Assembly: GCA_965204745.1 (NCBI GenBank)
Contig: OZ242010.1
Location: 448,001-512,000 of the forward strand
Reading direction: 5' to 3'
Source: Candidatus Latescibacterota bacterium
GTDB taxonomy: Bacteria > Latescibacterota > UBA2968
Length of the DNA: 64,000 nt
Shown here: one piece after another, positions 9,221 to 64,000 of the stretch
Layout of the letters: the number at the start of each line of letters is the position of its first letter
How positions within the stretch are numbered: position 1 is the first letter of the stretch
Program-made: the position numbers and the translations under genes
Notes under the pieces: model-generated
What the model was told of the DNA's origin: nothing
Databases searched by the model: none
The model's input: the letters and a program-made list of their open reading frames with translations, nothing else

Positions 9221-9250
9221 CTTCCCTCCTCTTGGACGAGTTTCATCCCA

Positions 9251-9841: not shown

Positions 9842-9874
9842 TGTGGTGATTCCAAATGAAGGGAGACGTGAGAG

Positions 9875-9971
9875 GGGAGAAGTAACACCCTGTCTGAATC
9901 GCAGATTAAACGGATTACGCGGATTAGGGCACGCAGGTAGAGCAGGGCTACAAAGAGGCAAAGCATGCGCT
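9875..9971 (+). repeat. Dispersed ~97-bp repeat, copy 1 (core GGGAGAAGTAACACCCTGTCTGAATCGC.GATTAAACGGATTACGCGGATTAGGGCACGCAGGTAG)
   Basis: 66-bp core matches 11188..11253 with one mismatch; weaker similarity continues for ~30 bp. Confidence 0.9.
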
Positions 9972-10045
9972 GAAGCGATTTTGTTCATGATGGCGATGGG
10001 TTGGCTGACCACTGACCGCTAACTGCTTGGGGCATGGGGTTGTCC

Positions 10046-10927
10046 CTACGGTTGTGTTTTCACTTTCAGCGCGTTGGGAACGACCTCAACTGTCGCGGGG
10101 GTCTCGCACACGGGTTCGCCGTCGGCAAAGACCCACATGGGATCATCCGCCTCAATCCGCAGGGTCTTGGTTTGCGCGACCTGCACCGCAGGATGACCAA
10201 CGTGCGCGCCAGAATACGCCCGCAACAACAGCCGCAAGACCCGCCAACGCGGCACATCGGACACCCGGCACACATCCAGCACGCCATCATCTAACACGGC
10301 ACTCGGTGCAACTTTGATCCCGCTCCCGTAAAAAGGCGTGTTCGCCGTTGCCGCCAGCAGAACGCGCCCGTCCAAAACGCCAAAATCTCCTGTGAGACGC
10401 ACCAGCGGAGATCGATATTGGCCCAGCGTTTGCAAAATTGCCAGCCCATAAGCCATCGTCCCACCCAATCGCAACGCCTGATCGCGCACCCGTCGCGCCA
10501 CTGCGGTATCGAATCCCAAACTCGCAACGGTCGCAAAGAACCGGCCCCCGATTTTCCCCAGATCCATCGCCCGCACCCGGCCGTGCATCAGCGCATTGAC
10601 AACGCCGTTCACATCCTTGGGCAATCCCAATGCCCGCGCCAAATCATTCCCGCGACCACATGGCACAATGCCCAAAACCGCGCCTGAATGCGCGAGGCCA
10701 TTGATCACTTCGTGGATCGTGCCATCCCCACCACACGCCGCAACCCGTTGCACACCCCGCGCCAATGCTTCCCGCGTCAACCGCTCGCAATCCCCCCGCG
10801 CTTTCGACACCACCAGATCAGCCCCCACCCCGCGCTGCCGCAACTCCCCCACAACCCGCTCCCCCAAGCGCGTTGCCCGGCCGCGCCCCGAACTGGGATT
10901 TGCGATGATCGTCCAATGAGTTGGCAT
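10046..10927 (-). CDS. Diacylglycerol/lipid kinase family protein (YegS/DAGK-like)
   Basis: IIANPSSG, CGGDGTIHEV, GRGNDLAR, YGSG, ADGE motifs; start at MPTHW. Confidence 0.9.
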   Translation of the reverse strand: MPTHWTIIANPSSGRGRATRLGERVVGELRQRGVGADLVVSKARGDCERLTREALARGVQRVAACGGDGTIHEVINGLAHSGAVLGIVPCGRGNDLARALGLPKDVNGVVNALMHGRVRAMDLGKIGGRFFATVASLGFDTAVARRVRDQALRLGGTMAYGLAILQTLGQYRSPLVRLTGDFGVLDGRVLLAATANTPFYGSGIKVAPSAVLDDGVLDVCRVSDVPRWRVLRLLLRAYSGAHVGHPAVQVAQTKTLRIEADDPMWVFADGEPVCETPATVEVVPNALKVKTQP

Positions 10928-48089: not shown

Positions 48090-48184
48090 GCTCCTTTACA
48101 CAGATCCAAAAGAATCAAAATCATGTATTGCCTATACGGAGAACAGGAAGCATATTGATTAATCGCGCCTCAGAGGAGATTGGA

Positions 48185-49225
48185 ATGGCAAGACGCAAGC
48201 CCTATACAAGAGTCGCTAAAACAAATCAAATTCGGGCAGATCATGTCCGGAAGATGGGCGACATCGTTTTCAAAGGCTTCCAATGTTTGAATAGTGCATG
48301 CAGGGAATTTATCTTTATCCGCCAAGATGAGATTGGCGAGGATTTCGAACTGGTCTGTCCGAGTTGTGAGACTGTTATGCGATCAGGTGACGAAACCCAA
48401 TTTTATGAGTACAAATTGATAGACCAGAGATACAATTCCATTACTGAAGAAGGCAGATTTACCATTCTGCACGATGACTATATCGAGGAGGCGCAAGAGT
48501 ACAAGTATTGTATCATTTGCAATACGATTAAACCGCTTCATCTATTTGATCGACACCGCTCTCGAAGATCGGGCCGCCAAGGCGAGTGCAGACTGTGCAA
48601 AGCGGGTTACAACGCGATTAAGAATAAGACTCGGTTGACAGACCAACATCGAGAAGCAGCACAGAAGCGACGAATGTATTTAGACCTGGCTGCAAGTTCA
48701 AGAATCAACAGCGAAGAAGTCTATAAACGCTTTGGCTATCGTTGTTTTAAGTGCAAGAGAGACCTACGGAAAGTGGAGGCCAAAGAACGACCACTCGATC
48801 ATACGCTTCCCGCTGTCTTTTTGTGGCCCCTGACAACTGAAAATGCGACGTTGCTCTGTCGAGAACACAATGGAGAAAAATCGGGCAGATGGCCCTCAGC
48901 ATATTACTCGGGTGAGGAGTTAAGCGAGCTCGCTGTCCTGACAGGTGTTCGGTACGAGACGCTCATTGGACCGGTTCATTACAATCCCGAAGCGATTGAA
49001 CGCCTTAAAAATCCTGAACACGTCGATCGCCTTTTAGCAAAATACGCGGCCTATATGCCGGAAATTATCAAGTTACGCAATCGGATTTTAGAGCATGAAA
49101 ATTTTGACTTTTTCGAGTATTCAACAACCATTTCGCCTGCTTGGATTCGCCAAGCCGATGAGTATCAGCGAGTACTCAATCACAAGGCGATCTCTAATAC
49201 AAAACCAAATACTGATGGGACGTAA
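48185..49225 (+). CDS. Zn-ribbon/HNH-type putative restriction endonuclease
   Basis: CPSC, CIIC, CRLC, CFKC...LDHTLP...NATLLCREHN; convergent with an MTase. Confidence 0.7.
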   Translation: MARRKPYTRVAKTNQIRADHVRKMGDIVFKGFQCLNSACREFIFIRQDEIGEDFELVCPSCETVMRSGDETQFYEYKLIDQRYNSITEEGRFTILHDDYIEEAQEYKYCIICNTIKPLHLFDRHRSRRSGRQGECRLCKAGYNAIKNKTRLTDQHREAAQKRRMYLDLAASSRINSEEVYKRFGYRCFKCKRDLRKVEAKERPLDHTLPAVFLWPLTTENATLLCREHNGEKSGRWPSAYYSGEELSELAVLTGVRYETLIGPVHYNPEAIERLKNPEHVDRLLAKYAAYMPEIIKLRNRILEHENFDFFEYSTTISPAWIRQADEYQRVLNHKAISNTKPNTDGT

Positions 49226-51599
49226 CCGTTCCCTTGTCGCGGATACCATGAGATTCACAATGGGCGACGCTTTCATCGAAGAGATCGGCAGAGCGAAACC
49301 ATCTTTTGCCCAGTTTCTGCAAGTGGGCGGCCATATCGCATTTCACACTTTTGCCCAAATGCAAAACAACGACGCCATCAGATTTGAGCCGCTCCCTTGC
49401 TTGGCGTAAAATCGGAATATACACATCAAAACTTTTCATCTGTTGTTCATCGACAAAAACAGATGGGCGGGTGTCAAAATCGCGTGCAGACCAACCCGCA
49501 AACCACAAGCGCAACCAGTTTGCGAGGTAAAATCGGGTACTCTTAAAAAAGGGAGGAGACGTAATAACGGCATCGAGTTGATCGATCTCTTGAGGCCACC
49601 AACCCGTTGCATCTTGAAAAAATATCTTGCCGAGCCGAAAATCAGCCGGCAAATTTTCGCCCAAACTCCGTTGAACCTTTGCGCGTAGCCGATCAATTAA
49701 CGGGCGATATTCAAAAGGCCCTGTTGGCTTGTAGGGCGTAAGCGGATGCGAGCGGCGACTGAGGGCATAGGGCCGATTGCCATGCAAAATATGCAGCAGT
49801 GAGGCAAAAACGAATTGCTCTTCGGGTGTCTGTGGCGGGTGGGTTTGAAAGTAGCGGCGGGATAAGATGATTTCGCTCAGGGTTCGGGGTTCGTAGTATT
49901 CGGCGATTTTACCATTGAAACCCAAGCGATGAACTTCATCGATCTCCTGATCGGTAGCCGAGTTATATTCAATAAAATTTTTCACTGTTCCAATAACCGC
50001 CGCACAACCCCGATTCGCGGGACGCTGAAGCTTCGCACTGGCAATCGCAAAAGCCGCAGGGCTGATCTCAAAACCGTAGGCGAGTTTGTCGGATAATGCC
50101 GCTTCAAATGGAATTGTGCCAACACCGGCAAAAGGATCTAAAACACGTCCGCCCTGCGGAACAAAGGTCTGCACCAAGTGATGTGCGATAGCGGGCTTCA
50201 GTTTTCCCGGATATGAACATAGAGAGTGCCAAGCATGTCCCCAGTTGCGATTTGTAAAGGGTGCTTTCTGGTGAGGCAGGCTTTTTTTGCAACTATCCCA
50301 TGCGGACCGCCAGTGCGGCGTCCGTTTTTTTTTCGCGTATTTTCCCTTTTTGGATTTGAAAACGATCAGCGATTGTTTGAGCGACATTCCGCTTCTGGAT
50401 TTGCGTTGTCGCAACATCACATCGCCTTCTTGAACAAAACCCAAGTCTTGCAAACACGTCGCTAACAATTGATCAACCGGAACGCGAATCCCCGCGTAAC
50501 AAGAATCGCCAATATCAATCGCGACTGTTGCATCGGGCGTTAAGTGACCGAGAATTGCTCGAAATATGTCTGTTATCTCGAAAAAATAACTATCAATCAT
50601 GCGGGGAATGCGCGTGTCATAAGCTTCCCGTCTAAGAATCGAAACGATTTTTTGAACATCTGGATGGGACGAAACAGGTGCTTTTGCGACGGTGACATCA
50701 TTGATACCAGCCGTTAAAGATGCCGCACGAAATTTTGTCAAATCCCGATTTTCCTTCAAGCAGTGCAAGAACCACAACTCTATCTTTGTGTTGCGAAAAT
50801 AATTTGTTCCGTTCACATAAGGCGGGCTGGTTATCACGGCGTCAATGCCGAGGGGGGGTATGTCGTCTAATGAGCGTGCATTTTCGCAGATGAGCAATGG
50901 CTCTGTTTTTAGACGATTCACATCGTCTCGGATATCATGGGCGATCTGATCGATATTTTGGCAGATGCCGTCAACGAGTGGAACTGTCTGCCGCTCGAGT
51001 TCCTTGGGCGTTTTGTATCTCAAATCACCTGCCCGCTTCATTCGAGATGCAGGAACGAGTGCCGATAAAATTGCAACCGCAATTAAGTCCGCTAACATGG
51101 CATTTTCAAGAGCGATTTCGTCGAGCCAGGATCTCGTTCGCAAAACGCGATCATAAACCTGTTCATCAAAAAACAGACTGTCGCCAAAAGTTTGCGTATA
51201 TGCGCGGTGCAATACGTCATTTCGCCGGAATTTTTTTAGGTTTTTTAGGGTGTCTTTTGCCTGAACGAGCTCTTGAGCCAATACAAAACGTTGAGACGAA
51301 TTTAATCGCCGGACTCGTATTTTTGTCGCGCTGATAAATTGTAAGACGGGGTTTATTTCACAAAAATAAGCTGTTTTGTCGAGTTGCGATGCGGTAAAGG
51401 CTGTGGTTCCCGTTCCAGCAAAGGGATCGAGAATCACCTGGGCATTCGGGGCGTACCTCTTCAAGATGGATTCCACAAATTGAGTCGAATAGCCCTCTAA
51501 ATACGGATACCATCGCGCAAAGGGTTCTTTCCTGCCCCCCTTGAAAGTCACAGTCACCGGATCAAATAATTTCATTTTCACATCCATGCTCGGTAGCAC
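49194..51599 (-). CDS. Tandem two-domain amino-methyltransferase (likely N4-cytosine)
   Basis: Two complete motif sets: LDPFAGTGTT...TSPPY and LDPFAGVGT...TSPPF; start uncertain. Confidence 0.85.
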   Translation of the reverse strand: MLPSMDVKMKLFDPVTVTFKGGRKEPFARWYPYLEGYSTQFVESILKRYAPNAQVILDPFAGTGTTAFTASQLDKTAYFCEINPVLQFISATKIRVRRLNSSQRFVLAQELVQAKDTLKNLKKFRRNDVLHRAYTQTFGDSLFFDEQVYDRVLRTRSWLDEIALENAMLADLIAVAILSALVPASRMKRAGDLRYKTPKELERQTVPLVDGICQNIDQIAHDIRDDVNRLKTEPLLICENARSLDDIPPLGIDAVITSPPYVNGTNYFRNTKIELWFLHCLKENRDLTKFRAASLTAGINDVTVAKAPVSSHPDVQKIVSILRREAYDTRIPRMIDSYFFEITDIFRAILGHLTPDATVAIDIGDSCYAGIRVPVDQLLATCLQDLGFVQEGDVMLRQRKSRSGMSLKQSLIVFKSKKGKYAKKKRTPHWRSAWDSCKKSLPHQKAPFTNRNWGHAWHSLCSYPGKLKPAIAHHLVQTFVPQGGRVLDPFAGVGTIPFEAALSDKLAYGFEISPAAFAIASAKLQRPANRGCAAVIGTVKNFIEYNSATDQEIDEVHRLGFNGKIAEYYEPRTLSEIILSRRYFQTHPPQTPEEQFVFASLLHILHGNRPYALSRRSHPLTPYKPTGPFEYRPLIDRLRAKVQRSLGENLPADFRLGKIFFQDATGWWPQEIDQLDAVITSPPFFKSTRFYLANWLRLWFAGWSARDFDTRPSVFVDEQQMKSFDVYIPILRQARERLKSDGVVVLHLGKSVKCDMAAHLQKLGKRWFRSADLFDESVAHCESHGIRDKGTVTSHQYLVLY

Positions 51600-51825
51600 A
51601 ACCTGAGTCTCGCGTCCCCGAATGAGATTTAGCGATTGCTTTAATTGGCGAAGACAATAGGTATTGAACGGTAAGTCACTTGCCTCGGCATTGGTGCTCG
51701 ATAATTGTTTCCCTGCAACTGACGCAGTTCAGCATGTTCAACCTATCATATTACAGGAGCACTGTCAAAGGGTTCGCGATGGTCATTTCCAAAAGCGCGG
51801 GGCAATGCTTTTGTCGTGGCGCACG

Positions 51826-52635
51826 TCAAGGTCGATTTCGCGCTTCCCACATGGGATAGTGGATGTCTGCCCGTTGCAGTTCGCGCTGAAGCCACTGGTT
51901 GAACAGGCGTTTGCGGATCTCTTTTTTGACGCGCTCGTCAAGTGTTGCCGGATAGATTTGTTGCAACAAGTACAGCGCGAACCCGCCCGAGACCTTTTCC
52001 GGGCCGAAGAGGTCGCCTGGGGACGCGGCGAAAACGCGGGCGGCAATGCCCTTTGGCAACTGCGTGCGGCGCACGCGGCCCAAAAACCCACTGCCCGGGC
52101 GCGTGGTTGCATCTTGGGAAAACCGCCGCGCCATGGCGTAAAAGTCCGCGCCATCCTCCCGAATCTGCACGTCGATCTCGTCGATTATCCCCCGATCCGC
52201 GTGAAAGATCCAACAGATTTCCGCCTCGTCAAATTCCAGCGCGTGTTGTGCAAAATAGGGATCGATCTGCCCGTCCGCGATTTTTTCCGACAGCAGGTAT
52301 TCCAGGCGGCTCACCTCGGCGTCTTCTGCCACGTCTCGCAGGGTAATGCCGCGCTGGGCGAGCCAGGCCTCGGTGTCTTCCACGCGCTCGAGGCGGTGTC
52401 GATACCGCCAGTCGTTGACTTTGCGCTGAATGTCTTCGCGCGCTGTGCCAATGCCTTCGCGCTGCGCGAGTTGGCGGATCAATTCCCCGCGTGCAAACCG
52501 ATCAAAAAAGCGCAGGTCGTCCGCAACGCCCAACTGCCGCACGATTTGGCACACGCTCAAAGAGACGCCATTGACCTCGATCAGCGTGGCATCCTCAATT
52601 TCCGATTCGACGCGTTGCATCGCCGCTCTCCTCAT
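51826..52635 (-). CDS. PpiC/parvulin-like peptidylprolyl isomerase-related maturation protein
   Basis: DFYAMARRFSQD...SGFLGRV...LFGP rotamase-like segment; follows hlyD. Confidence 0.75.
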   Translation of the reverse strand: MRRAAMQRVESEIEDATLIEVNGVSLSVCQIVRQLGVADDLRFFDRFARGELIRQLAQREGIGTAREDIQRKVNDWRYRHRLERVEDTEAWLAQRGITLRDVAEDAEVSRLEYLLSEKIADGQIDPYFAQHALEFDEAEICWIFHADRGIIDEIDVQIREDGADFYAMARRFSQDATTRPGSGFLGRVRRTQLPKGIAARVFAASPGDLFGPEKVSGGFALYLLQQIYPATLDERVKKEIRKRLFNQWLQRELQRADIHYPMWEARNRP

Positions 52636-54046
52636 GGGTCGTCGCGTCGTACTTTGCGGATTCGTAAAGCTGCCGCAAGGGGCTGAGCAACATCAGCAAA
52701 ACCGATTGGCGGTCCGTCATAATCTCTGCCGTGCCCTTCATGCCAAACATCAGGGGTTTTTCGTCGCCTTTGACGCGGATGGTGTGTTCTTCCAATGCCA
52801 CGATGGCTTTGAAGATAGGCCCGACCGTTTCATCGAGAATCGCATCCGGCGCAATGTGTTTGAGCCACCCGCGCTTGATGCCGAAATCCTGAAACGCGTA
52901 CGCGTCGTATTTCAACTTGACCACCTGCCCGGGTTTGAGCAAGCCCACGTCTTTGTTCAAAACCATCAATTCCGCGACGATCGGCGCAGACGCGGGCACC
53001 AGCATCCCCAAGGGCTGTCCCTTGTTGATCACCTGCCCGACCGCGTTCACCATCACCTGCGTGACAATGCCCGATTCTTGCGCCAAAATCAGGTCCGATT
53101 CGGCATCTAACACGCGATCGACGCGCTTGCGCGCCTGCTCCAATCGCAGTTGGGCGGTCTCATAAGCGTGTTGGATCTGCGCTGTCTCGCGCTCGTGGGC
53201 GAGGCGCGCTTCCGTAATTTGACGCTTGAGGTCTTGAACCGCCATTTCGTTTTTGTAAATCTCGGACATGCGGTTCGGCAGTGCGGCCAGCGCGCTGAGG
53301 TATTGCACGCGCGCGCGATCCATGTCTGAACGGCTGATCAAGTTGCGTTCAAACAGGGTCTTTTGTTGCAAAAACGCCTGTTTGAGATGGTCGATTTCCG
53401 CTTGGCGAAAGCCGATCTGCGCTTGCAACCCGGCGTCCGGCGCGCTGTTTTGAGACGCATCGCCCACGTCGTTGCGATAATCTTTTAGGGCGTTTTGGTG
53501 CGCGGCCATAAACCGCTGCAAAACGGACAGGCGTCGTTCGAGCGCGGCGATGGTTTCCCGGTTCAATTTGGCCTTTTGCGGCAGCGCGTTTTTGAGATCG
53601 TACTCGGCTTGCTCAAACGCGATCTCGGCTTGTTCCCGCTCCCGCAATTCGCCCCAGGTCTCCCATGATTTCAGCTTGAACAACACCTGACCCGCTGCGA
53701 TGTGATCGCCTTCGGCAATGCCGATCCATTCGATTTCCCCGCCGCGCTTGGCCTGCACGGTTTTCACCTGCCCCAGCGGCACCAGCCGAAACGGCGCGGA
53801 CGCCACCACATCCACCTCGCCCAACGATGCCCACGCGAGGGCAATGCCGATAAACAGCAGGACGATGTAGAGCAATGCCCGCCCCCAAAAGGGCCGCAAC
53901 GACCCCATAAACGCACGCGCCTCTTCGGACGCGTCGTCGCGCTCAACGCGCAAAGTTCTGGCCTCGGCCTCTACCAGTGGTTCTGCCATCGCGTGCCTTT
54001 TGTGCCTTTTGTGGCTAAATTCGGCCTCTACCAGTGGTTCTGCCAT
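52595..54046 (-). CDS. HlyD family secretion membrane-fusion protein
   Basis: N-terminal TM, coiled coil, KDVGLLKPGQVVKLKYDAY, GMKGTAEI. Confidence 0.92.
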   Translation of the reverse strand: MAEPLVEAEFSHKRHKRHAMAEPLVEAEARTLRVERDDASEEARAFMGSLRPFWGRALLYIVLLFIGIALAWASLGEVDVVASAPFRLVPLGQVKTVQAKRGGEIEWIGIAEGDHIAAGQVLFKLKSWETWGELREREQAEIAFEQAEYDLKNALPQKAKLNRETIAALERRLSVLQRFMAAHQNALKDYRNDVGDASQNSAPDAGLQAQIGFRQAEIDHLKQAFLQQKTLFERNLISRSDMDRARVQYLSALAALPNRMSEIYKNEMAVQDLKRQITEARLAHERETAQIQHAYETAQLRLEQARKRVDRVLDAESDLILAQESGIVTQVMVNAVGQVINKGQPLGMLVPASAPIVAELMVLNKDVGLLKPGQVVKLKYDAYAFQDFGIKRGWLKHIAPDAILDETVGPIFKAIVALEEHTIRVKGDEKPLMFGMKGTAEIMTDRQSVLLMLLSPLRQLYESAKYDATTHEESGDATRRIGN

Positions 54047-54048
54047 CG
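53964..54048 (-). repeat. 29-bp CACAAAAGG-family repeat between 28-bp direct duplications, in frame within the hlyD 5' end
   Basis: TCGGCCTCTACCAGTGGTTCTGCCATCG at 53964..53991 and 54021..54048. Confidence 0.9.
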
Positions 54049-54074
54049 TGCGTCCCCCTTCAAAGCGTTGCCCG

Positions 54075-57000
54075 TCAAACCCCTTGCAACTGTTGCCCGC
54101 ACATGTGCGCGTACAACCCCTGTTGCACCATCAACTCGCCGTGCGTGCCCATCTCCACGAGATGGCCCTTGTCCAGCACCACAATGGCATCGGCGTCTCG
54201 CACGGTGCTCAAGCGGTGGGCGATGATCAAGGCGGTGCGGTCTTCCAAGAGCAGATCCAAATTCGCCCGAATCGCCTGTTCCGAATCCGTGTCCAGCGCG
54301 TTGGTGGCTTCGTCAAAAATCAAAATTTTCGGATCGCGGTACAATGCCCGCGCTATCGCGATCCGCTGCCGTTGCCCGCCGGACAACCCGACGCCCTGTT
54401 CGCCCACTTTTGTCTCGTAGCCCAAGGGCATATCGGTCACAAAGTCTTGCACGCAGGCCAGTTTTGCAACTTCCAGGATGCGTTCCATGTCCGCGTCTTC
54501 CCGCCCAACGGCGATGTTTTCCGCGATGCTGCCGCTGAACAAAAACGGCTCTTGCATGACCATGCCCACCTGTTGCCGCAACCAATGGGGGTCGAAGTCT
54601 CGCGCGTCCATCCCGTCGAGCAACACGCGCCCGTCTGAGGGATCGAACAGGCGCGGCACGAGTTTGACCAACGTGGTTTTGCCCGCGCCGCTACGTCCCA
54701 CGATAGCGACTTTTTGCCCCGGTTCGACCGCGAGGTCGATGTTGTTCAACACGTAGGGTTCGTCAGACCCGACGCCGTACCGAAAAAATACCGAGTCGAA
54801 AACCAAGCGGCCTCGCACCTGCTTCAAGCGCAAGCCGTGCCCTTGTTGCCGCGCGTCTTCCATCTGCGTGTCGTACACGTCATTGAGCCTGTCCAAGGCG
54901 ACGCGCGCTTCTTGCACTTGCGGCCAGATGCTGATCAACCCCATGATGGGGCCCATCACATTGCCGATGAGGGCATTAAACGCCATCAACTGCCCCACGG
55001 ACAAATTGCCCTCGATGACCAATGACGCGCCATACCACAAAATCACCGTGTTGCTCAACAAGTTGATCAGGCCCCCGCCCGCGCCGAACAGCATCTGCAT
55101 TTTTAGGCGTTGAAATCCGATCTGAATTTCCCGCGTGAACTTGCCCTCCCAATGCCACCGGGTCGCGCGCTCGACCGCCTCGGCTTTGACCACGTCGATG
55201 CCGCGCAGGGAATCGATCAAGACCGAGGATTGTTCGGCGCGCGCCAAAAATGCGCGTTGGCTAAAGGATTTCAAAATGGGCGTGTAGATCAGGGTGAGGC
55301 CCACGGACAGGGGCACAAAAATCAGCATGACGAGCGTCAACTCGGCGTTGTAGTAAAACATCAATCCGAGATAGACGAATAACATCACAAAGTCCAAAAC
55401 CGCGGAAACGGTCGTGCCGGTCAACAGGCGTTGGATCGTGGCGTTTTCCTTGAATCGCGTGGTCAAATCGCCGGTGCGCCGAAGGGCGAAAAACCGCATG
55501 GACAGGGCCAATAAATGGCGGTAAAAACGCGACAACATCGACAGGCTCAAGCGCGCACTCACATAGCCGATCAAGTACGTCCGCAGGGTTGTCGTGCCCA
55601 TTTGAAACAGCGCGACGACGACCATGCCCACCAACATCAAGTTCAACAAGTCCTCGTCGTGATGGACCAACACTTGATCCACAATGGTCTGCATAAAAAT
55701 AGGCGACGCCAGCCCAAACAAACTGAGCACCAGCGACGCCAACAAGACTTCGATTAAAATGCCGGTATGGGGTTTGACCAATGGGAAGAACCGCTTGAAG
55801 GACGAGCGGGACGGCTCGTTTTGTGCCACGCGATCCGTGTATTCCAACAACAGCGCGGCGTTTGTCCAGCCCTTTTCAAATTCCGCACGCGACAATTTGC
55901 GAATGCCCACGCCCGGGTCCGCGATTTTCACCTCGTTTTTCCCGATCTGATACAAGACCACAAAGTGATTGCCTTCCCAGTGGAGGATGGCCGGGAGGTC
56001 TGTTTGCATGAGGGCTTCGTACCCGGTGCGAACCCCGTGCGTGACAAAGCCCAGGGTTTCAGCGGCCTCGGCCAACGCGGCCATGGACGTGCCATACCGC
56101 GAGACATTGGACATGTCGCGCAATCGGTTCAAGCCGATGGGCATTTTGTAGTACTTGCAGATCATGCCCAAACACGCGGCCCCGCAATCGGATTGATCGT
56201 GTTGCTTCAAAAATGGAAAGCGAAGCGCGGTGGGCGCGGTGGGTTGGCGTTCCTCTGTTCTGATGGCGACCACATTGGCGCGCGCGTCTCGTTTGTCAAC
56301 GCTTGGCTCGGCTCGCGCGCTCGGCCCATCGCCGAACGTCGCGCTTTGGGTTTGTCGCGGCAGAGGCGATGCCCCTGTCTCGCGTTCCGAGCTCGCTAGC
56401 CGCCCCATCTGCAAGGCCGCGCCGAGTGCGGGCATCCCGTCGTTGAGTTTGTCTAAATCGCTTTTATCGATAGAAAAGAGCACGCAATCGCTTTGGCAAC
56501 GGATCGCGGGTGGTCGCTCGCTCGGCAAATTCTCATCGCCAAAAAAATCCCCGGCGCGCAATATCGCGGTGGCGCCCTTTGCCGATGCGATCTCGACCTG
56601 ACCGCGGGCGATCAAGTAAAATCGCTCGTTTGGCTCCGCGACCAATTCGCCCTTTGCCACCTCTTCGCGCTTTAAGCGGGCGAACAGCTCCCGCAATACC
56701 TCAGCCGAGACATTCCCTTTCAAAAATCGCGTGAAATTCCGATACGCGATCTGCGCGACCTGATCCTCGAGGTACGCTTTTAATCCCGCTTCTTTTTTGA
56801 GCACCTTGAAGAACCGATCCTTTGGCACGCGCAAGAGGTCCGAGTCCTCAACCGCCCGCACGGTCGCCCGATGCCCCTGCCCGGTCAATAACGCGCCTTC
56901 GCCAAAGTGGTCGCCCGCGTATAAATAGCCCACGGTTGCAGAACCGCCCTCCGCGTCTCGCTTGATGACCCGCAACCGCCCAGCTTGCACCACGTAAAAG

Positions 57001-57125
57001 GCGTCCCCGGCTTGCCCCTGCTCAAAGATGACACTGCCAAATGGCGCGGGCCGAACCGCGTTTTCCGCAAAGAAGCGCGATAGGTTTCTAAATGCGACCT
57101 CGGGTGCTGTTTGTGTGGTGTTCAT
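54075..57125 (-). CDS. Peptidase C39-containing ABC exporter (PCAT) with two N-terminal cNMP-binding domains
   Basis: IFEQG...FGEGALL; QHDQSDCGAAC, HWEGNHFVVL, IADP; GRSGAGKT, LSGGQRQR, FDEAT, IAHRLST. Confidence 0.93.
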   Translation of the reverse strand: MNTTQTAPEVAFRNLSRFFAENAVRPAPFGSVIFEQGQAGDAFYVVQAGRLRVIKRDAEGGSATVGYLYAGDHFGEGALLTGQGHRATVRAVEDSDLLRVPKDRFFKVLKKEAGLKAYLEDQVAQIAYRNFTRFLKGNVSAEVLRELFARLKREEVAKGELVAEPNERFYLIARGQVEIASAKGATAILRAGDFFGDENLPSERPPAIRCQSDCVLFSIDKSDLDKLNDGMPALGAALQMGRLASSERETGASPLPRQTQSATFGDGPSARAEPSVDKRDARANVVAIRTEERQPTAPTALRFPFLKQHDQSDCGAACLGMICKYYKMPIGLNRLRDMSNVSRYGTSMAALAEAAETLGFVTHGVRTGYEALMQTDLPAILHWEGNHFVVLYQIGKNEVKIADPGVGIRKLSRAEFEKGWTNAALLLEYTDRVAQNEPSRSSFKRFFPLVKPHTGILIEVLLASLVLSLFGLASPIFMQTIVDQVLVHHDEDLLNLMLVGMVVVALFQMGTTTLRTYLIGYVSARLSLSMLSRFYRHLLALSMRFFALRRTGDLTTRFKENATIQRLLTGTTVSAVLDFVMLFVYLGLMFYYNAELTLVMLIFVPLSVGLTLIYTPILKSFSQRAFLARAEQSSVLIDSLRGIDVVKAEAVERATRWHWEGKFTREIQIGFQRLKMQMLFGAGGGLINLLSNTVILWYGASLVIEGNLSVGQLMAFNALIGNVMGPIMGLISIWPQVQEARVALDRLNDVYDTQMEDARQQGHGLRLKQVRGRLVFDSVFFRYGVGSDEPYVLNNIDLAVEPGQKVAIVGRSGAGKTTLVKLVPRLFDPSDGRVLLDGMDARDFDPHWLRQQVGMVMQEPFLFSGSIAENIAVGREDADMERILEVAKLACVQDFVTDMPLGYETKVGEQGVGLSGGQRQRIAIARALYRDPKILIFDEATNALDTDSEQAIRANLDLLLEDRTALIIAHRLSTVRDADAIVVLDKGHLVEMGTHGELMVQQGLYAHMCGQQLQGV

Positions 57126-57146
57126 TTCCGTCTCCTCAAATTGGTA

Positions 57147-58223
57147 TTACATCCCTTCTAAAACCGCAATGCCCCTTTCGAGCACCGGATCGCCCATAGC
57201 GGAGGAATCGGAAAAGCTGACGGCGATATCGGGGGGAACACCGATGCCTTCGTAGCTTATCCTATCCGCGGAAACGAATTTTGACACCGTGAGTTGATAC
57301 ACCCACCCATTGGGCAGCTGACCTTGCTTGATACTTCCAAGGGCACCGGCAGTGGAACTGCCGATGACCGTGACATGGGGGAATTGTCGCAGAGCCAAAA
57401 CAAAATGTTCCGCCGCACTCGCGGTATTTTTTCCGACGAGCAAGACGAGGGGGTTGGTGTATTGCCGCGCTCCTGACGGCCCGATTTGCAGTTCAAAAAG
57501 GGGCGCAGAGTCGGATCGATTGACGCGATATTGGTATTGTGCATAGCCATAGACGTGTGTTTTATCGACAAAACGCGCCATGACAGATCGCGCGTTTCCC
57601 GTCACACCACCCGAGTTCTGTCTCAGATCGATGATGATGCCATCAGTATGGCTCAACTGCGCTAAGACAGCGTCGATATCCCCTCCCCAGTCTTTATCTT
57701 TCACCGATCCGGTTGAAAATCCAGGGATAGAGATATACCCAATGCGATCTCGCATCGCGCCGTACTGAAGCCCTCCCTGCGTGTGTATATCGTCGATATA
57801 ATTTCTGACGCGGTCAAAATCGAACGACTCATCCTCCCGATTGCCAAACTCAATTGTGAACGTCGTATCTCTTTCAAACCCGCTCGGATCAAAAGTTAAA
57901 GGCTCATCCCGACGCCCCGATACAAAACGACCAAATGGCGTGACGAGACCGACATGCCGGTCGTTGAGGTATTCTAACATCAGGGCACAGATTGCAAAAA
58001 GTTCCAGTTGGGTGGTTTGCGCCGTGACGAAAGGACGCTGAACCCTGTAAAGCGCGTTCCAATCGACATTCTTGACCTCAAACAATGCGTAAAAGTCATT
58101 AAATTCTCGCCAGAAAACTTCGAAGTTGTGTTCGGGTGACGAGTCGAGATCACCACCTACAATTGACTTTCCGCAGGAAAAATGAAAACCACAGACGACG
58201 ACGATAAATAGCAGACGTAACAT
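57147..58223 (-). CDS. S41 family peptidase (probable lipoprotein)
   Basis: IDLRQNSGG, TASAAE, IGSSTAG, EGIGVPPD; N-terminal lipobox-like FSC. Confidence 0.88.
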   Translation of the reverse strand: MLRLLFIVVVCGFHFSCGKSIVGGDLDSSPEHNFEVFWREFNDFYALFEVKNVDWNALYRVQRPFVTAQTTQLELFAICALMLEYLNDRHVGLVTPFGRFVSGRRDEPLTFDPSGFERDTTFTIEFGNREDESFDFDRVRNYIDDIHTQGGLQYGAMRDRIGYISIPGFSTGSVKDKDWGGDIDAVLAQLSHTDGIIIDLRQNSGGVTGNARSVMARFVDKTHVYGYAQYQYRVNRSDSAPLFELQIGPSGARQYTNPLVLLVGKNTASAAEHFVLALRQFPHVTVIGSSTAGALGSIKQGQLPNGWVYQLTVSKFVSADRISYEGIGVPPDIAVSFSDSSAMGDPVLERGIAVLEGM

Positions 58224-58224
58224 G

Positions 58225-59013
58225 TTATTTTACCTTGAGAGCGAAGCCCATCAGCAGATTATGCGTGAACATTGCGGCCGTGCGTTCATATCTTCTCGCA
58301 CGCTGGAAATCCATGCGATAGACCGCGTAAAACGCGATAGATGAGGACAGCCGACTGGCGTAGTGAACGCCGATATTGAAATGCAGAAAGCGGTTCCAGA
58401 AGGCCAGATCACCAGCCAGTAAATTCGCAAAACCTTCCCGGCCGGATACAATACCAGATGCGTGTGGCAGATAATACGATACGAGGGTACTGCCCAGGTA
58501 TGCTCTGAGATGGTGTCGCATGTTAAAATGATAGTCACCCAAAATTGCAAGGCGCAGGCTGAAATCCATATCCCCAATGAGCTGGGCATGTACTGGCGGA
58601 TGGATGTATTCTTTAACGTAAAGTCCCACTCCCATGCCCCCCATAATGCCCAACCTCATTTTGTCGTAGGCCGCCAAATAGCGCCCGTATAATTCTTCAA
58701 CCTGAAAATACACGATCTTGACACTTGTCTCGGAAGCAGAGAGGTTGCCACGCCCAAATGCGATAAACTCGGAGCGGTAGCTTTTATTGCCTTGTTTTAG
58801 AGAGAGCCAAGCAACGGATGGCGTCTGGCCTTCGTACCGCAGGTAGGATCCCAATTCATCTTTTAAGTAAAATTGCGACAGCCCCGCCATGATCCCATAC
58901 CATTGCTCGCTCGCTTTCTCCTTTTTGGTGGCCTCATTCTCTTTGGGCATTTCTTCACCCAAGGCATCCATTCCCCCGAGCACCAAACACAAAACGACCA
59001 GTATTTTCATCAT
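58225..59013 (-). CDS. Hypothetical exported protein (possible beta-barrel)
   Basis: Signal peptide; alternating aromatic/hydrophobic strands. Confidence 0.55.
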   Translation of the reverse strand: MMKILVVLCLVLGGMDALGEEMPKENEATKKEKASEQWYGIMAGLSQFYLKDELGSYLRYEGQTPSVAWLSLKQGNKSYRSEFIAFGRGNLSASETSVKIVYFQVEELYGRYLAAYDKMRLGIMGGMGVGLYVKEYIHPPVHAQLIGDMDFSLRLAILGDYHFNMRHHLRAYLGSTLVSYYLPHASGIVSGREGFANLLAGDLAFWNRFLHFNIGVHYASRLSSSIAFYAVYRMDFQRARRYERTAAMFTHNLLMGFALKVK

Positions 59014-59051
59014 TTTTCACCTGTCAGATATCTTGGTTCATGTATGACGCC

Positions 59052-59927
59052 TCATTTCGCGGTGCTGAACGCCGGAAGCAAAAATACCTGTTGCTCTCGT
59101 CGCTGTGGTATCCACGCCCGCCATTCTCGGTCTAATGCCTCGAGATCCTGTGGAATCGCGCGTTTGATGATTTCTAAGTTGTTGTTGTGAAGCAACTTAA
59201 ACCTGATCATATTCCATATACTCGGCGTAGCGCCAGCGGCTCGATTCATCTCCCAGATTATATTCTTGAGTATGCCTTGTCCCTTTTCTGAGGACATGAG
59301 AAAATAGACGAATAACCATCCGAAGGTCCGCATTTTAGCTTCTTGTTTTTTGTACTGGGATTTGGACAGTGAAAAGAAATCAGCCAATGACATCAGTTGC
59401 CCTTCTTTCAGCCACTCTTGGCATGCGCGGTTGCGATCAGGGGCAAAGCCGATCACCGCTTTATCATCATAGACCTCCATCCTTTCGAAATACTCTGCAA
59501 TGCCTTCTTGCAACCATTTGGGGTGCCACAAATGCTCATGCAAAATCGCGTGACTCGCTTCGTGATACACCCTCCTGATGAAATACACCCTCCCGACGGA
59601 ACAACACTCACAATGATTCAAGATCGCGACCTCTTTTTTTTTTACGGAATAATACGCCGGAGCAGAAGTCGAACCACCTCGATATTCGGTATAATCGCTA
59701 TGGCTACCAAATATCTGAAACTTGATCTGAAAACTTTTAGATACCTCGAGATCAAAGACCTTTTTATAGATCCCGATCATCATTTTAATCCCGCGTTCTA
59801 TGGCTTCCCTGTCCGTATCGTCAACTTCGCAGTTGTGCAGATTCAACTGGCAGATATCCTGCGCTGTATCCTGCGCCATCGCCAACTGCGCGCTCAATAG
59901 GATGAGAGACAGAAGTGCAAATTTCAT
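59052..59927 (-). CDS. Secreted zincin metallopeptidase-like protein (DUF1570/peptidase MA-like)
   Basis: Signal peptide; HEASH...WLQEGIAEYF. Confidence 0.7.
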   Translation of the reverse strand: MKFALLSLILLSAQLAMAQDTAQDICQLNLHNCEVDDTDREAIERGIKMMIGIYKKVFDLEVSKSFQIKFQIFGSHSDYTEYRGGSTSAPAYYSVKKKEVAILNHCECCSVGRVYFIRRVYHEASHAILHEHLWHPKWLQEGIAEYFERMEVYDDKAVIGFAPDRNRACQEWLKEGQLMSLADFFSLSKSQYKKQEAKMRTFGWLFVYFLMSSEKGQGILKNIIWEMNRAAGATPSIWNMIRFKLLHNNNLEIIKRAIPQDLEALDREWRAWIPQRREQQVFLLPAFSTAK

Positions 59928-60218
59928 CGCGATCTCCTACGTTAAAATAAAAAAAACGTCAGTGATTTAACAAAGGTCAATGCCATCGCTGTTGCGAAAG
60001 GCAGGATGACCGCACGACCCAAGGCGTTATCGTCGAGAACCTCCGTTTTTGCCCTTATTAATATTTTATGGGATAGGCGCCGATGCCATCAAACGCTCCT
60101 ACCCCATAATCAAAAATGACCTTCGAATCGACTTACTGTTTGGCAACAAGTTACGATACCTGACTTGCGCTCTGTAAACTCACCGCAGTAGCGGTTGCTT
60201 ACTTACCTCGGTTTTGAA

Positions 60219-60382
60219 CTACATTGACCAAGGGTGAACATCTACAACTACATCTGGCAGTGGTGGCAAGTCGATACCAAATTCCTCACTGATTAGATCA
60301 GCGAGTATATCATAGATATCATGCCAGACAACGCATCCACTGGGGCCGATTGCCCAGGGGTTGATACGATTCGCTTCGTCAT
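60219..60382 (-). pseudogene. Frameshifted duplicate of the double-glycine precursor at 62730..62954
   Basis: Same RBS and leader start; 64-bp deletion in the leader; core GCVVWHDIYDILADLISEEFGIDLPPLPDVVVDVHPWSM left out of frame. Confidence 0.85.
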
Positions 60383-60448
60383 TCTCTCACCTCCTTTCTC
60401 ACTTTCACTGAGAACTCACAGCAACAGCGGCTTCTGGCAGACCTTACA

Positions 60449-60694
60449 CTACATTGGCCAAGGCCACGGGTTAAAGGGCCAAGGCCACGGGTTAAAGACG
60501 TCCTCCCAATCTTCCAAAATATCTTCCAGTGGCGAGTCAAATTCCTCGCTGGTATCATCATCTGGAAACGGGTAACATCCACCCGCCCCAGCGACCTGAG
60601 CGATTTGGTGCTCGGTCAGATCAGTCGTTTCAATCGGCAGATTGACCGTAGCTGTGACCGAGTGCTCAGGGTCCGATACGATTCGCCTTGTCAT
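60449..60694 (-). CDS. Double-glycine RiPP precursor peptide C (81 aa)
   Basis: AAGGAGGTG RBS; leader MTRRIVS...DLTEHQIAQVAGAGG; core CYPFPDDDTSEEF...NPWPWPFNPWPWPM. Confidence 0.8.
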   Translation of the reverse strand: MTRRIVSDPEHSVTATVNLPIETTDLTEHQIAQVAGAGGCYPFPDDDTSEEFDSPLEDILEDWEDVFNPWPWPFNPWPWPM

Positions 60695-60803
60695 TTCTCT
60701 CACCTCCTTTCTTTAGGTTAAAAATGGTTTGAACTGATGGCGGTAGGCAATCTATCCTTTTACAGAACCCCTTGGAGTTGACCGCCCCTTCTACTCTTGT
60801 TTA

Positions 60804-61328
60804 TCACCTCTGCTGAATCAAAACGCCATTTTCCGACAGCAGGGACAAAACCTTTTCTGGATTTCTCGACGCGAGGACCACCTGTTTCACTTTCTTTTTT
60901 TGCTTGAGCTTGTAGCGGGTCAGGTAGTCTTCGTTCAATCGCAACCTGATCAACATTGCCCCTGGAAGCCAGCGGCCTTCTCCCAACACAGGCGGCCCTG
61001 CGGCATTGAGGGCTAAACGCATCGCAGGACTTTTGCGATCAACTATGAACTTCTCCGCATACGCGATTGTGCTCAATAAAATCTGTTCCTTGCCGGTAAA
61101 GTGATAGCCAAACGCGATTGTCGTATCGTCTATCTGAATTGTGAAACGCCAATACATCGAGAACACCACGCAAATCAGCACAAGCGCAGTAACCATAACC
61201 AAATGGGTGACAAATTGCATGCCAATCAAATAAACAAAGGCCGTTGCCATCGCTATCATCGCTACTGCGAAAGACAGGATGACCGCCCAGGGCGTTATCG
61301 TTTCGTAATAGACAATATTTCGGTTCAT
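60804..61328 (-). CDS. Hypothetical membrane protein (possible immunity)
   Basis: Two TM helices plus a soluble domain; ATGA overlap with the CPBP gene. Confidence 0.6.
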   Translation of the reverse strand: MNRNIVYYETITPWAVILSFAVAMIAMATAFVYLIGMQFVTHLVMVTALVLICVVFSMYWRFTIQIDDTTIAFGYHFTGKEQILLSTIAYAEKFIVDRKSPAMRLALNAAGPPVLGEGRWLPGAMLIRLRLNEDYLTRYKLKQKKKVKQVVLASRNPEKVLSLLSENGVLIQQR

Positions 61329-62136
61329 TTGGGATGTCCAATGAAGTCATGAACTGTATCCTTACGCGCTTCTACTTCTTTCTGCTTCGCCACCCGGTAA
61401 AACCACCACAGCCCAAGCGTAGCCAATATTACGCCACATAGATTGAGGACTACAACATTTTCCCAAAAATTTGGTACTTCAAAAAATAAAAATGTTACTT
61501 CCAAAAAATTGTTCAGCATGTGCCCCAAAATTGCAGGCCACAAAGATCCCGTTTGGATGACCCACCAGGCAAAGACAATTCCAAATATAAAGGCGACTGG
61601 AAATTGCCATGGATTCAGATGCATTAGACCAAACAGAATGGCCGACCAAACAATCGCCCGATTTTGTGTGTAGTGTGCCGATAGACCTCTCAAGATAATG
61701 CCTCTACAAAGTACCTCTTCAACAAAAGGTCCTATCAGGACGAAAAAAAAAATAAGGATAACAGATCAGATATCTTATTGGAGTCAACTAAGGCATCATA
61801 GGCACGCTGAAATTTTTCAGGTAATGGAATCACATGTTCCACCATTGCGGCTATTTGAAAATTAATGAGCCATAGCCCAAAGATAGATAAACCAACGGAA
61901 AACCATATACGCCAATCCTGGTCTATGTTTAGCAATATATCTTTCCAAGTTCGATTCGTCCGATGCGAAACATAGCACAAAATCAAAATGAGCCCTGTCA
62001 ACATCAAAAGGCCCCTCAGGTAATTATTCTTCATTAACGACTTGTCAATATTACTCGTCAGTATCCCCAAACCTATTGTAATAAGAAGCCATAATATCAG
62101 CAACCAAATTGACTGCTTCAAGTTTGGATACGTCAT
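61325..62136 (-). pseudogene. CPBP/Abi (CAAX-type) intramembrane metalloprotease, frameshifted at a T10 tract
   Basis: The N-terminal half stops just after T10 (61743..61752); the other frame carries PFVEEVLCRG, FGLMH and GHMLNN. Confidence 0.8.
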
Positions 62137-62258
62137 TTTAATCTCCCTAACATTTACTGTGATGCGTTTTTTGTTTTATTTTGCTTTTTTGGGATAGGAG
62201 CGAACATTCTAAAATGCCCCTATCCCAAAATCAAAAGGTAGCTTATTACTGCTTACTC

Positions 62259-62513
62259 CTAATCGTCGCAGCAACAGCAACAGCAACAACTCGGTTCTTC
62301 TTCTTCTTCTAGGACCTCTGAAACAAATTCATAAACCTCGTACGCGATCCACAAGAGAAGTCCGATCCTCCCTTTTGGCTTCGGCTTCTTCCCACCATAC
62401 GTTTCTGCCATGTGGCGACTTTCGAGCATTTCCTCTTGCGGTTGCAACGGATTGCAGGCGACAAACACTTGATCTGTATCTGTCGTCATTCGGTTTGCCA
62501 ATGTTTGAGTCAT
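62259..62513 (-). CDS. Double-glycine precursor peptide B with C-terminal Cys7 run (84 aa)
   Basis: GGAGGA RBS; leader ends ...EMLESRHMAETYGG; core KKPKPKGRIGLLLW...EEEEEPSCCCCCCCDD. Confidence 0.7.
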   Translation of the reverse strand: MTQTLANRMTTDTDQVFVACNPLQPQEEMLESRHMAETYGGKKPKPKGRIGLLLWIAYEVYEFVSEVLEEEEEPSCCCCCCCDD

Positions 62514-62729
62514 GGTATCCTCCAAAAAAGTAAATGAATGGAAACTTACAGCAAGAAAATTGTTTGCCCCTGAATACCCTCTTCGTGAGGGCCTTATTCA
62601 GGGATGAGTTGTGAAATGTCAGGTATGGCCCCAACATCTAAGAAATGTGAGAATTGTGCAGAATAGCCAACACGTCTTCCCACCGCGAACTCACCGCAGT
62701 AGCGGTTTCTGATTGACCTCGGTTTTGAA

Positions 62730-62954
62730 CTACATTGACCAAGGGTGAACATCTACAACTACATCTGGCAGTGGTGGCAAGTCGATACCAAATTCCTCAC
62801 TGATTAGATCAGCGAGTCTATCATAGAGATAAGGCCAGACACATCCCCCAGAGACCAGAGCGGTTTGATGCGCGTTCAGGTCAGTCGTTTTCATCGGCAG
62901 GTTGATCGCAACTGGGGCCGATTGCCCAGGGGTTGATACGATTCGTCTCGTCAT
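62730..62954 (-). CDS. Double-glycine RiPP precursor peptide A (74 aa)
   Basis: AAGGAGGTG RBS; leader homologous to precursor C, ending VSGG; core CVWPYLYDRL...VHPWSM. Confidence 0.82.
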   Translation of the reverse strand: MTRRIVSTPGQSAPVAINLPMKTTDLNAHQTALVSGGCVWPYLYDRLADLISEEFGIDLPPLPDVVVDVHPWSM

Positions 62955-63010
62955 ATTTATCACCTCCTTTCTTTTGCAACTCAGCGCGGGTAGCGTCCCT
63001 TGTGCGTTGA

Positions 63011-64000
63011 TCAGGGGGCCATGAGCATCTCGCTGAGGTGGCGGATTTTGCGAAGCGTTTTGTGGGCTGTGGCTTTCGTATCGCACAGGCCCATCATGAT
63101 GGCTTCGACTTCGTTTGGATGCAGGTATTGCAACAAGTGGAGGCCCAAGCCTTCGAGCAGGGCCATGTCTTGTCCCAAAAATGGGATGCGCGGCAATGGG
63201 CCTTGCTTGCTGCCCAGATGGTTAAAGCCCTTGGCCACGCTTTTCAGCTTGCTGGCCGAGTCGCAGCTTTGGGCAAAGCTGACGGTAATTGGAATGGGGC
63301 ATGCGGGGGCGTCTCGTTTGACCCGCAGATTTTCAAACAGGGCGATGAGTTGCTTTGCCGTGCGATCCCATGAAAACGCGGTTGCGCGTTGACGCGCCTT
63401 CTCGCCTAGTGCCACGCGCTCGGTCTTGATCTTCAACAGATCGCGCACCGCATCCGAAATCGCTTCGGGGGCGATGTACCCCGTCATATTCAGGGGCTCG
63501 TCTTCAAATCGCTCGATCTCGATCAACCGCCCGCAATCCCCGAGCAACTCGGGCGCGCCCGCAAAATTGGTCGCCACGACCGGCAACCCACACGCCATGC
63601 CCTCCAGCACGGTTGAGGGACACGATTCATAGGAATACACGGACAGGGCGCACAGCACATCGAGCATGTTGTAATACAGCGGCATCTGCGGATAGGGTTG
63701 CGCGCCGAGGAAGACCACATTGGGGGGATGTGTCACAGACGCGAACTGCTTGCCGATTACCGCGAACAACACATTGGGATTCAGATCTGCCATCCGCAAA
63801 AACGGATACGCGCCCTTGCCCGGTTCAAACCGCCCGCAAAAGCCCACCACGGGCATTTCCAAAAAGCGTTGATCGCCCGTCTTATCCGCGATCTCTTTTC
63901 GCGCTTGCAACTTGTCTGTCGGCGCGAACACCTCGGCATCGATCCCATTGGTTATGGGGTGCAAATACGACGGGTCATACACCAATTCGCCCAGTTCTTC
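63011..64000 (-). CDS. GT4 (GT-B fold) glycosyltransferase with C-terminal extension (5' end outside window)
   Basis: NGID, CGRFEPGKG, ESCPSTVLEGMACGLPVV, FSWD. Confidence 0.88.
   Translation of the reverse strand, partial: EELGELVYDPSYLHPITNGIDAEVFAPTDKLQARKEIADKTGDQRFLEMPVVGFCGRFEPGKGAYPFLRMADLNPNVLFAVIGKQFASVTHPPNVVFLGAQPYPQMPLYYNMLDVLCALSVYSYESCPSTVLEGMACGLPVVATNFAGAPELLGDCGRLIEIERFEDEPLNMTGYIAPEAISDAVRDLLKIKTERVALGEKARQRATAFSWDRTAKQLIALFENLRVKRDAPACPIPITVSFAQSCDSASKLKSVAKGFNHLGSKQGPLPRIPFLGQDMALLEGLGLHLLQYLHPNEVEAIMMGLCDTKATAHKTLRKIRHLSEMLMAP

Follow-up and report, generated by a model that had tools for sequence, protein, structure and literature searches.

The subject of this study is a peptide gene cassette of a Candidatus Latescibacterota bacterium (assembly GCA_965204745.1), an uncultured Latescibacterota represented by a metagenome-assembled genome (MAG) of one contig of 5.48 Mb. 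The window, that is, the whole stretch of DNA that was analysed, comprises 64,000 nt of contig OZ242010.1 (positions 448,001-512,000); all positions below refer to the window unless given as contig positions, and those past 64000 are window-equivalent. At its right-hand end, a preliminary description had listed a minus-strand run of genes from a glycosyltransferase (GT) through several small open reading frames (ORFs) to a peptidase-containing ABC transporter (PCAT), an HlyD-type adaptor and a PpiC-like protein. The ORF list and the Pfam and NCBIfam searches bear this out, with every gene present, in the order given and on the minus strand (Table 1). The run is read here as a Latescibacterota-specific cassette that would make, process and export hypervariable peptides, with GTs that may glycosylate the precursors; the chances of this reading as a whole are about even.

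Table 1. Genes of the peptide cassette in the order of transcription, with window positions and the basis of each assignment (aa, amino acids; TM, transmembrane; HMM, hidden Markov model; cNMP, cyclic nucleoside monophosphate).
Feature	Position	Strand	Basis or remark
GT467, GT4-type retaining glycosyltransferase	63011..64000, on to 64414 (467 aa full)	-	private C-terminal domain of ~100 aa
Precursor A (preA), 74 aa	62730..62954	-	leader-family HMM 6e-24
Precursor B (preB), 84 aa	62259..62513	-	leader-family HMM 7.5e-24
CPBP/Rce1-like intramembrane protease, split frames 61735-62136 and 61325-61693	61325..62136	-	Pfam Rce1-like 9.1e-15 (C-terminal part)
Membrane protein, 174 aa, two predicted TM helices and a soluble domain	60804..61328	-	family-less
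Precursor C (preC), 81 aa	60449..60694	-	leader-family HMM 5.3e-14
A', dead copy of precursor A	~60219..60382	-	DNA alignment
HExxH (zincin-like) secreted protein, 291 aa	59052..59927	-	signal-peptide-like N-terminus, HEASH motif
Exported protein, 262 aa	58225..59013	-	signal-peptide-like N-terminus
S41 C-terminal processing peptidase, lipoprotein-like N-terminus	57147..58223	-	Peptidase_S41 1.5e-30, Tricorn_C1 2.2e-9
PCAT, 1016 aa: two cNMP-binding stretches, C39, ABC membrane domain, ATPase	54075..57125	-	Pfam, TIGR01193
HlyD-type periplasmic adaptor	52595..54046	-	TIGR01843 204.4 bits, cut-off 208.65 (just under)
PpiC-like protein	51826..52635	-	Pfam Rotamase 2.5e-11; TIGR04500 96.2 bits, cut-off 180

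Precursor A follows GT467 after a gap of 56 bases, and features a leader ending in SGG and an acidic core that opens with a cysteine and closes on HPWSM. Its orthologues (74-81% identity) stand directly after GT467 in two other genomes, G016 and G018. The leader of precursor B, which ends in YGG, belongs to a second subtype, and its core combines a hydrophobic helix with an acidic stretch and ends in seven consecutive cysteines and DD; such poly-Cys tails also occur in G018 and in g7, a genus of a sister family. Precursor C has a leader ending in AGAGG and a very acidic core with Cys in first place and a Pro/Trp repeat in last, and relatives at 49-63% identity are found in G010, G009 and other genomes. 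The strong ribosome-binding sites noticed earlier on the small ORFs are indeed present, as GGAGG-type sites precede A, B, C and A', with the GGAGG of preA placed 8 bases 5′ of the gene. The double-glycine ending of the leader motif proposed in the preliminary description also stands, but the spacing L-x6 does not, and A and C read L-x7-V-x-G[GA]. A' had been taken for a pseudo-precursor, and rightly so: it is a copy of preA in which a 61-base deletion inside the leader shifts the frame, and its last ~130 bases are identical to preA in a DNA alignment.

Comparison with related loci places these peptides in a single family. An iterative HMM search for the leader over the window and 42 loci (L012-L024 and L026-L054, with several places represented twice) returned 103 matches from 79 distinct ORFs, corresponding to 73 distinct peptides, and joined both leader subtypes. 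Six of the 79 ORFs were dropped, as they run out of frame over the conserved 3′ end of the GT467 gene. The leader of ~37-42 aa is conserved in A, B, C and their relatives. In an alignment of 29 short, hand-picked family members, M1, L19, P20, L26 and G36 never vary, and at least 90% of the members have R4 and P9; the last two leader positions read G-L in some relatives, which is atypical. Because the leaders are conserved in relatives, the small ORFs are by this comparison genuine genes and not chance ORFs, and their earlier identification as double-glycine precursors holds in the form of one conserved, hitherto unnamed leader family. As far as sequence can tell, A, B and C carry the marks of double-glycine leaders, namely a GG end, conserved hydrophobic positions and an adjoining PCAT.

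A genome-wide scan found four intact members of the family in this genome. Three of them are A, B and C, and the fourth is an orphan at 994.4 kb. The orphan locus (L002, contig positions 994426-995106) encodes an intact peptide of 120 aa with the second leader subtype. It also retains a fragment of the GT467 3′ end, with 72% identity over ~100 bases, and a 10-codon truncated leader of the A type; no transporter gene lies near it. None of A, B, C and the orphan matches a Pfam family at E<=0.01. At the same threshold, NCBIfam yields no family for A, B or C, and the known leader models NHLP (TIGR03793) and Nif11 (TIGR03798) leave them unmatched. A profile search with the leader retrieved 158 database clusters, and among the 120 of these that were listed none carries a Pfam domain; those with a name, among the matches listed, are called 'hypothetical protein' and once 'putative hemolysin'.

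The GT that heads the cassette is tied to these peptides across the phylum. In a profile scan of one genome per species (185,579 species), GT467 orthologues occur at 29 loci with 64-92% identity, all of them in Latescibacterota or in MAGs classified only as 'bacterium', and the next matches are generic GT4 enzymes of 25-39% identity. The family is narrow, with 45 close homologues in 5.8 billion proteins. The preliminary description had called for a search for syntenic clusters, and had named as contrary evidence a GT4 whose homologues sit mainly in lipopolysaccharide or exopolysaccharide loci and never by such peptides; at 26 of the 29 loci, the GT lies directly upstream of leader peptides and the exporter set. 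Since its close relatives sit with peptides and exporter, and not in loci for surface polysaccharides, GT467 is a dedicated part of the cassette. A PCAT follows within 10 kb downstream at 26 of the 29 loci, and HlyD and the PpiC-like protein come after it wherever the contig is long enough. Of the three remaining loci, L026 does have a PCAT, which the overlapping L013 places just outside the flank, another lies on a contig that is too short, and L028 has no PCAT within 10 kb. A complementary view comes from 13 relative loci centred on the PpiC-like gene, eight of which have GT467 directly upstream of leader ORFs; the other five comprise one with the neighbouring GT only, one with a GT467 remnant, and three from g7 that lack a GT but have CPBP genes and peptides. 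The linkage is kept in copies that have diverged to 48-53% identity (PpiC-like protein) and 64-68% (GT467), and several genomes harbor two or three complete cassettes.

GT467 is accompanied by a second GT gene of ~836 aa, which starts the run 36 bases upstream of it. The preliminary description had expected more modifying enzymes beyond position 64000: further glycosyltransferase is there in the form of this gene, but a radical SAM, YcaO or other maturase is absent from the 12 kb upstream. Both GT genes match Glycos_transf_1 (GT4), and the neighbouring GT also matches Glyco_tran_28_C. The N-terminal half of the latter is a GT4 module resembling stp3 (337.6 bits with TIGR04063, a PEP-CTERM/exopolysaccharide family whose cut-off is 442), and its C-terminal half is weakly GT1/GT28-like (matches of the MGT, MurG and YjiC type). 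The GT1/GT28-like module accompanies GT467 always. The stp3-like module is more mobile: at the 27 loci where the neighbouring GT has a match, it forms one protein with the GT1/GT28-like module in 13, is missing or largely so in 10 (one of which, L039, is cut by the contig end), and appears in three diverged copies as a GT4-like extension on GT467 itself. Thus, GTs and cassette stay linked even where the third GT module has changed its fusion partner.

Taken at the level of sequence, the genetic link between GTs and peptides is real and strong. That the GTs directly glycosylate the peptides is a separate claim, to which slightly less than an even chance is given. GT467 has an invariant EX7E motif and Lys, and a model from a 32-sequence alignment (mean predicted local distance difference test score, pLDDT, 91.3) shows a GT-B fold and a C-terminal domain in which three helices come after several strands; an earlier fold from 9 sequences (pLDDT 47.5) was set aside. 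A complex prediction of GT467 with precursor A, run without controls, gave a median score of 0.30 against a mark of 0.32. Among the 29 aligned peptides, a Cys lies at most 3 residues from the cleavage site in 17 of the 21 that come from genomes with the GT. For the 8 from g7, which lacks it, the count is 0, and a hydrophobic residue occupies the position. Because the genomes are related, this pattern is a lead and not a statistic; it fits direct modification of the peptides, confounded by kinship.

Several observations weigh against glycosylation of the peptides. Four g7 genomes that are 95-100% complete keep leader peptides, CPBP and the PCAT-HlyD-PpiC set, and GT467 is found nowhere in them at E<=1e-10, which means that the GT is not needed for processing or export. 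The nearest structural neighbours of GT467 (aligned over residues 1-369, without reaching the C-terminal domain) act on non-protein acceptors, and the stp3-like module resembles an exopolysaccharide family. At the level of sequence, moreover, nothing points to a peptide-recognition fold in the C-terminal domain: it has no PqqD match, and hhalign gives 1.9% probability when the domain is set against 25 aligned PqqD-like proteins of the phylum. A full-library HMMER search of the domain returned six matches (the GT family, two short possible fragments and three repeat proteins matching a single helix pair), and the domain is thereby confined to this GT family. Pfam at E<=10 adds only a chance-level zinc-finger line, and the ESM Atlas search gave no usable match. 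Finally, the synteny counts overstate the independent support, since the genomes are kin. In G052, the C-terminal domain seemed to occur on its own, as a separable peptide-binding module would, but this reading was rejected. The copy is a 78-aa ORF and the sole remnant of the GT in a cassette broken by insertion sequences (L024, G052:C1:5520000-5539500, 6454-10695), where it lies beside transposase genes of the IS3 and IS110 types.

The g7 genomes, the structural neighbours of GT467, the stp3-like module and the lack of a detected peptide-recognition fold also count in favor of an unmodified microcin-like or class II bacteriocin locus, whose peptides would undergo no more than cleavage and export and whose GTs would build an envelope glycolipid or oligosaccharide, for instance for self-protection or as a co-regulated surface function. 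This is the leading alternative, and it is thought improbable, though by no means far-fetched. It has to account for a narrow GT family that is found only at the head of this cassette (26 of 29 loci), and for three GT modules that stay beside the peptides through fusions and fissions. Also against it, the cassette of this genome holds no flippase, polymerase or lipid-carrier gene, and the only nearby transporter genes are a MacB-type ABC set with its adaptor, upstream of the first GT, where rpoN lies as well.

The peptides themselves speak to the question of function. Between the GTs and the transporter, cassettes contain a low-GC, fast-changing cargo zone with 1-8 peptides and immunity-type membrane proteins; in the window, its GC content is 0.43-0.49 versus ~0.59 in the flanks. 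The cores are extremely diverse across the family, and include acidic helices with Trp-rich tails, Gly/Ala-rich hydrophobic sequences, Gly/Thr/Lys repeats, Cys-rich C-terminal domains and poly-Cys tails, the last of which are also found in another family of the order. In contigs of three public sequencing runs (at 62697-62843), 120 other bases stand in place of the preA core, with the leader and the downstream flank kept; this is a core-swapped allele or a paralogue in the same communities. Together with the low-GC cargo zone, it argues for a rapid turnover of cores behind a fixed leader.

Membrane proteins of the immunity type are interleaved with the peptides, both as CPBP genes and as small two-helix proteins, and in G018 a unit of a type-1 peptide, a type-2 peptide and a CPBP gene stands in three copies in series. 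Abi-type CPBP is known as a bacteriocin immunity protein, and the interleaving and the tripled unit fit a pairing of peptide and immunity genes. The same arrangement is seen in ordinary bacteriocin loci, and to that extent it also favors a locus whose peptides are left unmodified. The CPBP protein of the window has an Rce1-like domain and the motifs EExxxR, FxxxH and HxxxN, but not in one frame, because of a frameshift at a run of ten T (61743-61752) just before the EExxxR motif. In the relatives checked (L012-L015), both parts are in one frame. The frameshift is not an assembly error, since the ten T are spanned, with no indel, by contigs from three sequencing runs that belong to three studies. 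The 174-aa membrane protein has no Pfam or NCBIfam match. Six of the 29 cassettes encode homologues of it (52-66% identity), placed either among the peptide genes or ahead of the GTs. It is a candidate immunity or accessory protein.

The identification of the transporter in the preliminary description holds, as it scores 527.4 bits with TIGR01193, a model of peptide cleavage/export ABC transporters, above the cut-off of 523.85, and the Cys, His and Asp motifs of an intact C39 domain can be read in its translation. Pfam matches cover C39 (3.4e-39), ABC_membrane (2.2e-53) and ABC_tran (8.7e-33), and orthologues of 65-87% identity occur in 26 of the 29 GT467 loci. The PpiC-like gene is present in 20 of the 20 other genomes of the genus and in all 15 of g7, always after PCAT and HlyD. 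With a score below the TIGR04500 cut-off, the protein is a relative and not a member of that family. At the 5′ end of the HlyD gene (53960-54090), a dispersed repeat of ~27 bases (~53992-54020) is flanked by a duplication of ~30 bases that carries the first nine codons a second time. Genome-wide, 18-mers of the repeat are found 26-111 times, and another copy lies near L003 11500-11760. Because the insertion leaves the start of the gene (19 codons) duplicated around the repeat, the real start is probably the second Met (53989). Elsewhere in the genome, a second PCAT-HlyD-PpiC-like set (L025, contig positions 4813681-4818132) shares 39-49% identity with that of the window. The PpiC-like match of this set contains a stop codon, its transporter match falls into two overlapping pieces, and neither a GT match nearby nor, in the genome-wide scan, a leader-family peptide is found there.

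The N-terminal cNMP-binding stretches of the PCAT bring in a second alternative, in which the peptides are signals or matrix components released under a nucleotide second messenger, as has been proposed for HetC of Nostoc, with or without glycosylation. The transporter shares this N-terminal domain architecture with HetC. Furthermore, cores A and C are strongly acidic and not cationic, like the majority of the short cores in the alignment, a feature that also tells against an antagonistic function under the reading proposed here, as acidic cores are unusual for membrane-active bacteriocins. A possible sigma-54 promoter upstream of the GTs would imply signal-dependent expression. An exact consensus (TGGCA-N6-TTGCA) lies on the minus strand at contig positions 515039-515054 (67039-67054), ~95 bases 5′ of the start codon of the first GT and with rpoN ~4.5 kb further upstream; in the 64-kb window the pattern was found 0 times, with 0.38 expected. 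The weight of this site is lessened by its distribution, since only 3 of 27 loci with the neighbouring GT (GT873) have a match near the first GT, namely the two closest relatives and one other. A signalling role is considered unlikely. Signals are usually conserved along with their receptor, whereas hypervariable cores, tandem peptide/CPBP units, dead copies and a core-swapped allele fit diversifying selection, and the cassette shows no gene for a cognate receptor or sensor kinase.

Under the proposed reading, in which the GTs act on the peptides, transcription in this genome would probably start from the sigma-54-type promoter upstream of the first GT. The cytoplasmic GTs at the head of the operon would glycosylate the precursor in a leader-dependent manner before export. 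The set would consist of the GT1/GT28-like module and GT467, with the stp3-like GT4 module as a third member that is fused to either of them in some copies, and one candidate sugar acceptor is the Cys with which most cores begin in genomes that have the GT. The PCAT would then cleave after GG (or GA/GL), and the core may cross both membranes through the PCAT, HlyD and an outer-membrane channel encoded elsewhere. By analogy with HetC, a nucleotide ligand on the N-terminal domains would gate export. Outside the cell, the peptides may act as microcin-like agents of competition, against which the CPBP and TM genes would protect the producer. The boldest form of this proposal, a new class of glycosylated peptides in which the GT set builds a short, possibly S-linked glycan on many unrelated cores for nucleotide-gated release, is thought rather unlikely to hold in full.

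Literature searches brought up no close match to a characterised cluster, in keeping with the preliminary description. The cassette resembles a glycocin or a class II microcin locus and is a member of neither. With glycocins such as sublancin, glycocin F and pallidocin, it shares the GG leader, a cytoplasmic GT in the operon and export by a C39 ABC transporter. Most cores here start with Cys, and many glycocins, in those parts of their literature drawn on here, carry an S-linked sugar on Cys. The enzymes differ: glycocins are modified by a GT of the SunS type, which belongs to GT2, whereas the cassette encodes GT-B enzymes (GT4 and GT1/GT28-like) in two or three modules. Glycocin loci also feature genes for thiol-disulfide oxidoreductases, which are lacking here, and the two nested disulfides of glycocins are impossible in cores A and C, because these have a single Cys each. 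Furthermore, unlike that of glycocins, the host here has two membranes and an HlyD adaptor, and the glycosylation of its peptides is putative.

Class II microcins and bacteriocins with Abi/CPBP proteins have in common with the cassette a GG leader, a PCAT with an HlyD-type adaptor, variable small peptides and immunity-type neighbours. In contrast, the leader is new to Pfam and NCBIfam, the transporter has two cNMP domains, many cores are acidic, and the PpiC-like protein and the GTs are fixed parts of the cassette. In class IIb microcins, the glycosyltransferase modifies a siderophore and not the peptide; genes for siderophore attachment were not seen here. The GG-peptide/radical SAM/GT4 systems of Bacteroidota (TIGR04157) likewise place a GT4 beside double-glycine peptides. 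However, where the TIGR04157 cut-off is 400, the score is 22.9 bits for GT467 and 48.4 bits for the neighbouring GT, and the 12 kb upstream hold no radical SAM gene.

The closest parallel to the transporter is HetC of Nostoc PCC 7120, with the same order of cNMP-binding, C39, membrane and ATPase domains. In the portions of the HetC study that bear on this comparison, residues of both the peptidase and the ATPase are required for function, the cNMP domain binds ppGpp in vitro and is required for cell differentiation, and no substrate gene nearby is identified (PMC10986499). Unlike HetC, the transporter of the cassette has adjacent and abundant substrates and two cNMP-binding stretches. The PpiC-like protein resembles the PpiC-related 'putative peptide maturation system' proteins of TIGR04500 in its PpiC-type domain and in being encoded by peptide export genes. 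TIGR04500 comes up in two papers on graspetides, and is, according to one section of one of them, a neighbour family near graspetide loci (PMC8939145). For sponge Latescibacterota MAGs, the relevant part of one study reports generic antiSMASH classes only (PMC12993501).

If the GTs act on the peptides, the cassette would represent a glycopeptide pathway built from GT-B enzymes instead of the SunS type, in which one leader steers very different cores to the same enzymes, a promiscuity that would be useful for engineering. Exporters with cNMP domains would also gain substrates encoded beside them, the substrate of HetC being left unnamed in the pertinent part of its description (PMC10986499). 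Even without glycosylation, the family is a new and sizeable group of double-glycine leaders attached to a hypervariable zone of peptides and immunity genes. The Latescibacterota are, to our knowledge, a phylum without cultured members, and the cassette bears on competition or communication among such symbionts.

Three genes between A' and the transporter stand apart from the others. The preliminary description had included several peptidases in the system, and while these genes are present, they are not core parts of the cassette: the zincin-like gene recurs at 2 of the 29 related loci and the S41 gene at 1 of 29. The exported protein is likewise found in 1 of the 29 related cassettes. Such rarity marks all three as accessories. 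The only family match of the HExxH protein is a weak one to Peptidase_M9 (0.0072), and it matches no sequence of the PDB; the 262-aa exported protein matches neither Pfam nor NCBIfam.

An Rfam scan of 51000-64000 gave no credible match. A simple scan found 17 sigma-70 promoter-like sites versus 9.3 (standard deviation 3.2) expected and 11 terminator-like sites versus 15.8 expected, from which no operon structure is readable. Among the public runs that hold 60200-63100, all readable labels are sponge or marine metagenome, and three sponge-labelled runs carry 30-45% of the words of this segment; these labels suggest that the lineage is sponge-associated. Downstream of the cassette lies a further block of lower GC content (48128-51599, 0.47). 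It encodes a protein of 801 aa in which two DNA methylase domains are recognised, and its opposite strand a 365-aa Cys-rich protein without a family match. L046, which lies in G016, ends short of this position; the 801-aa methylase also follows the PpiC-like gene at L012, in the same genome, and at L042.

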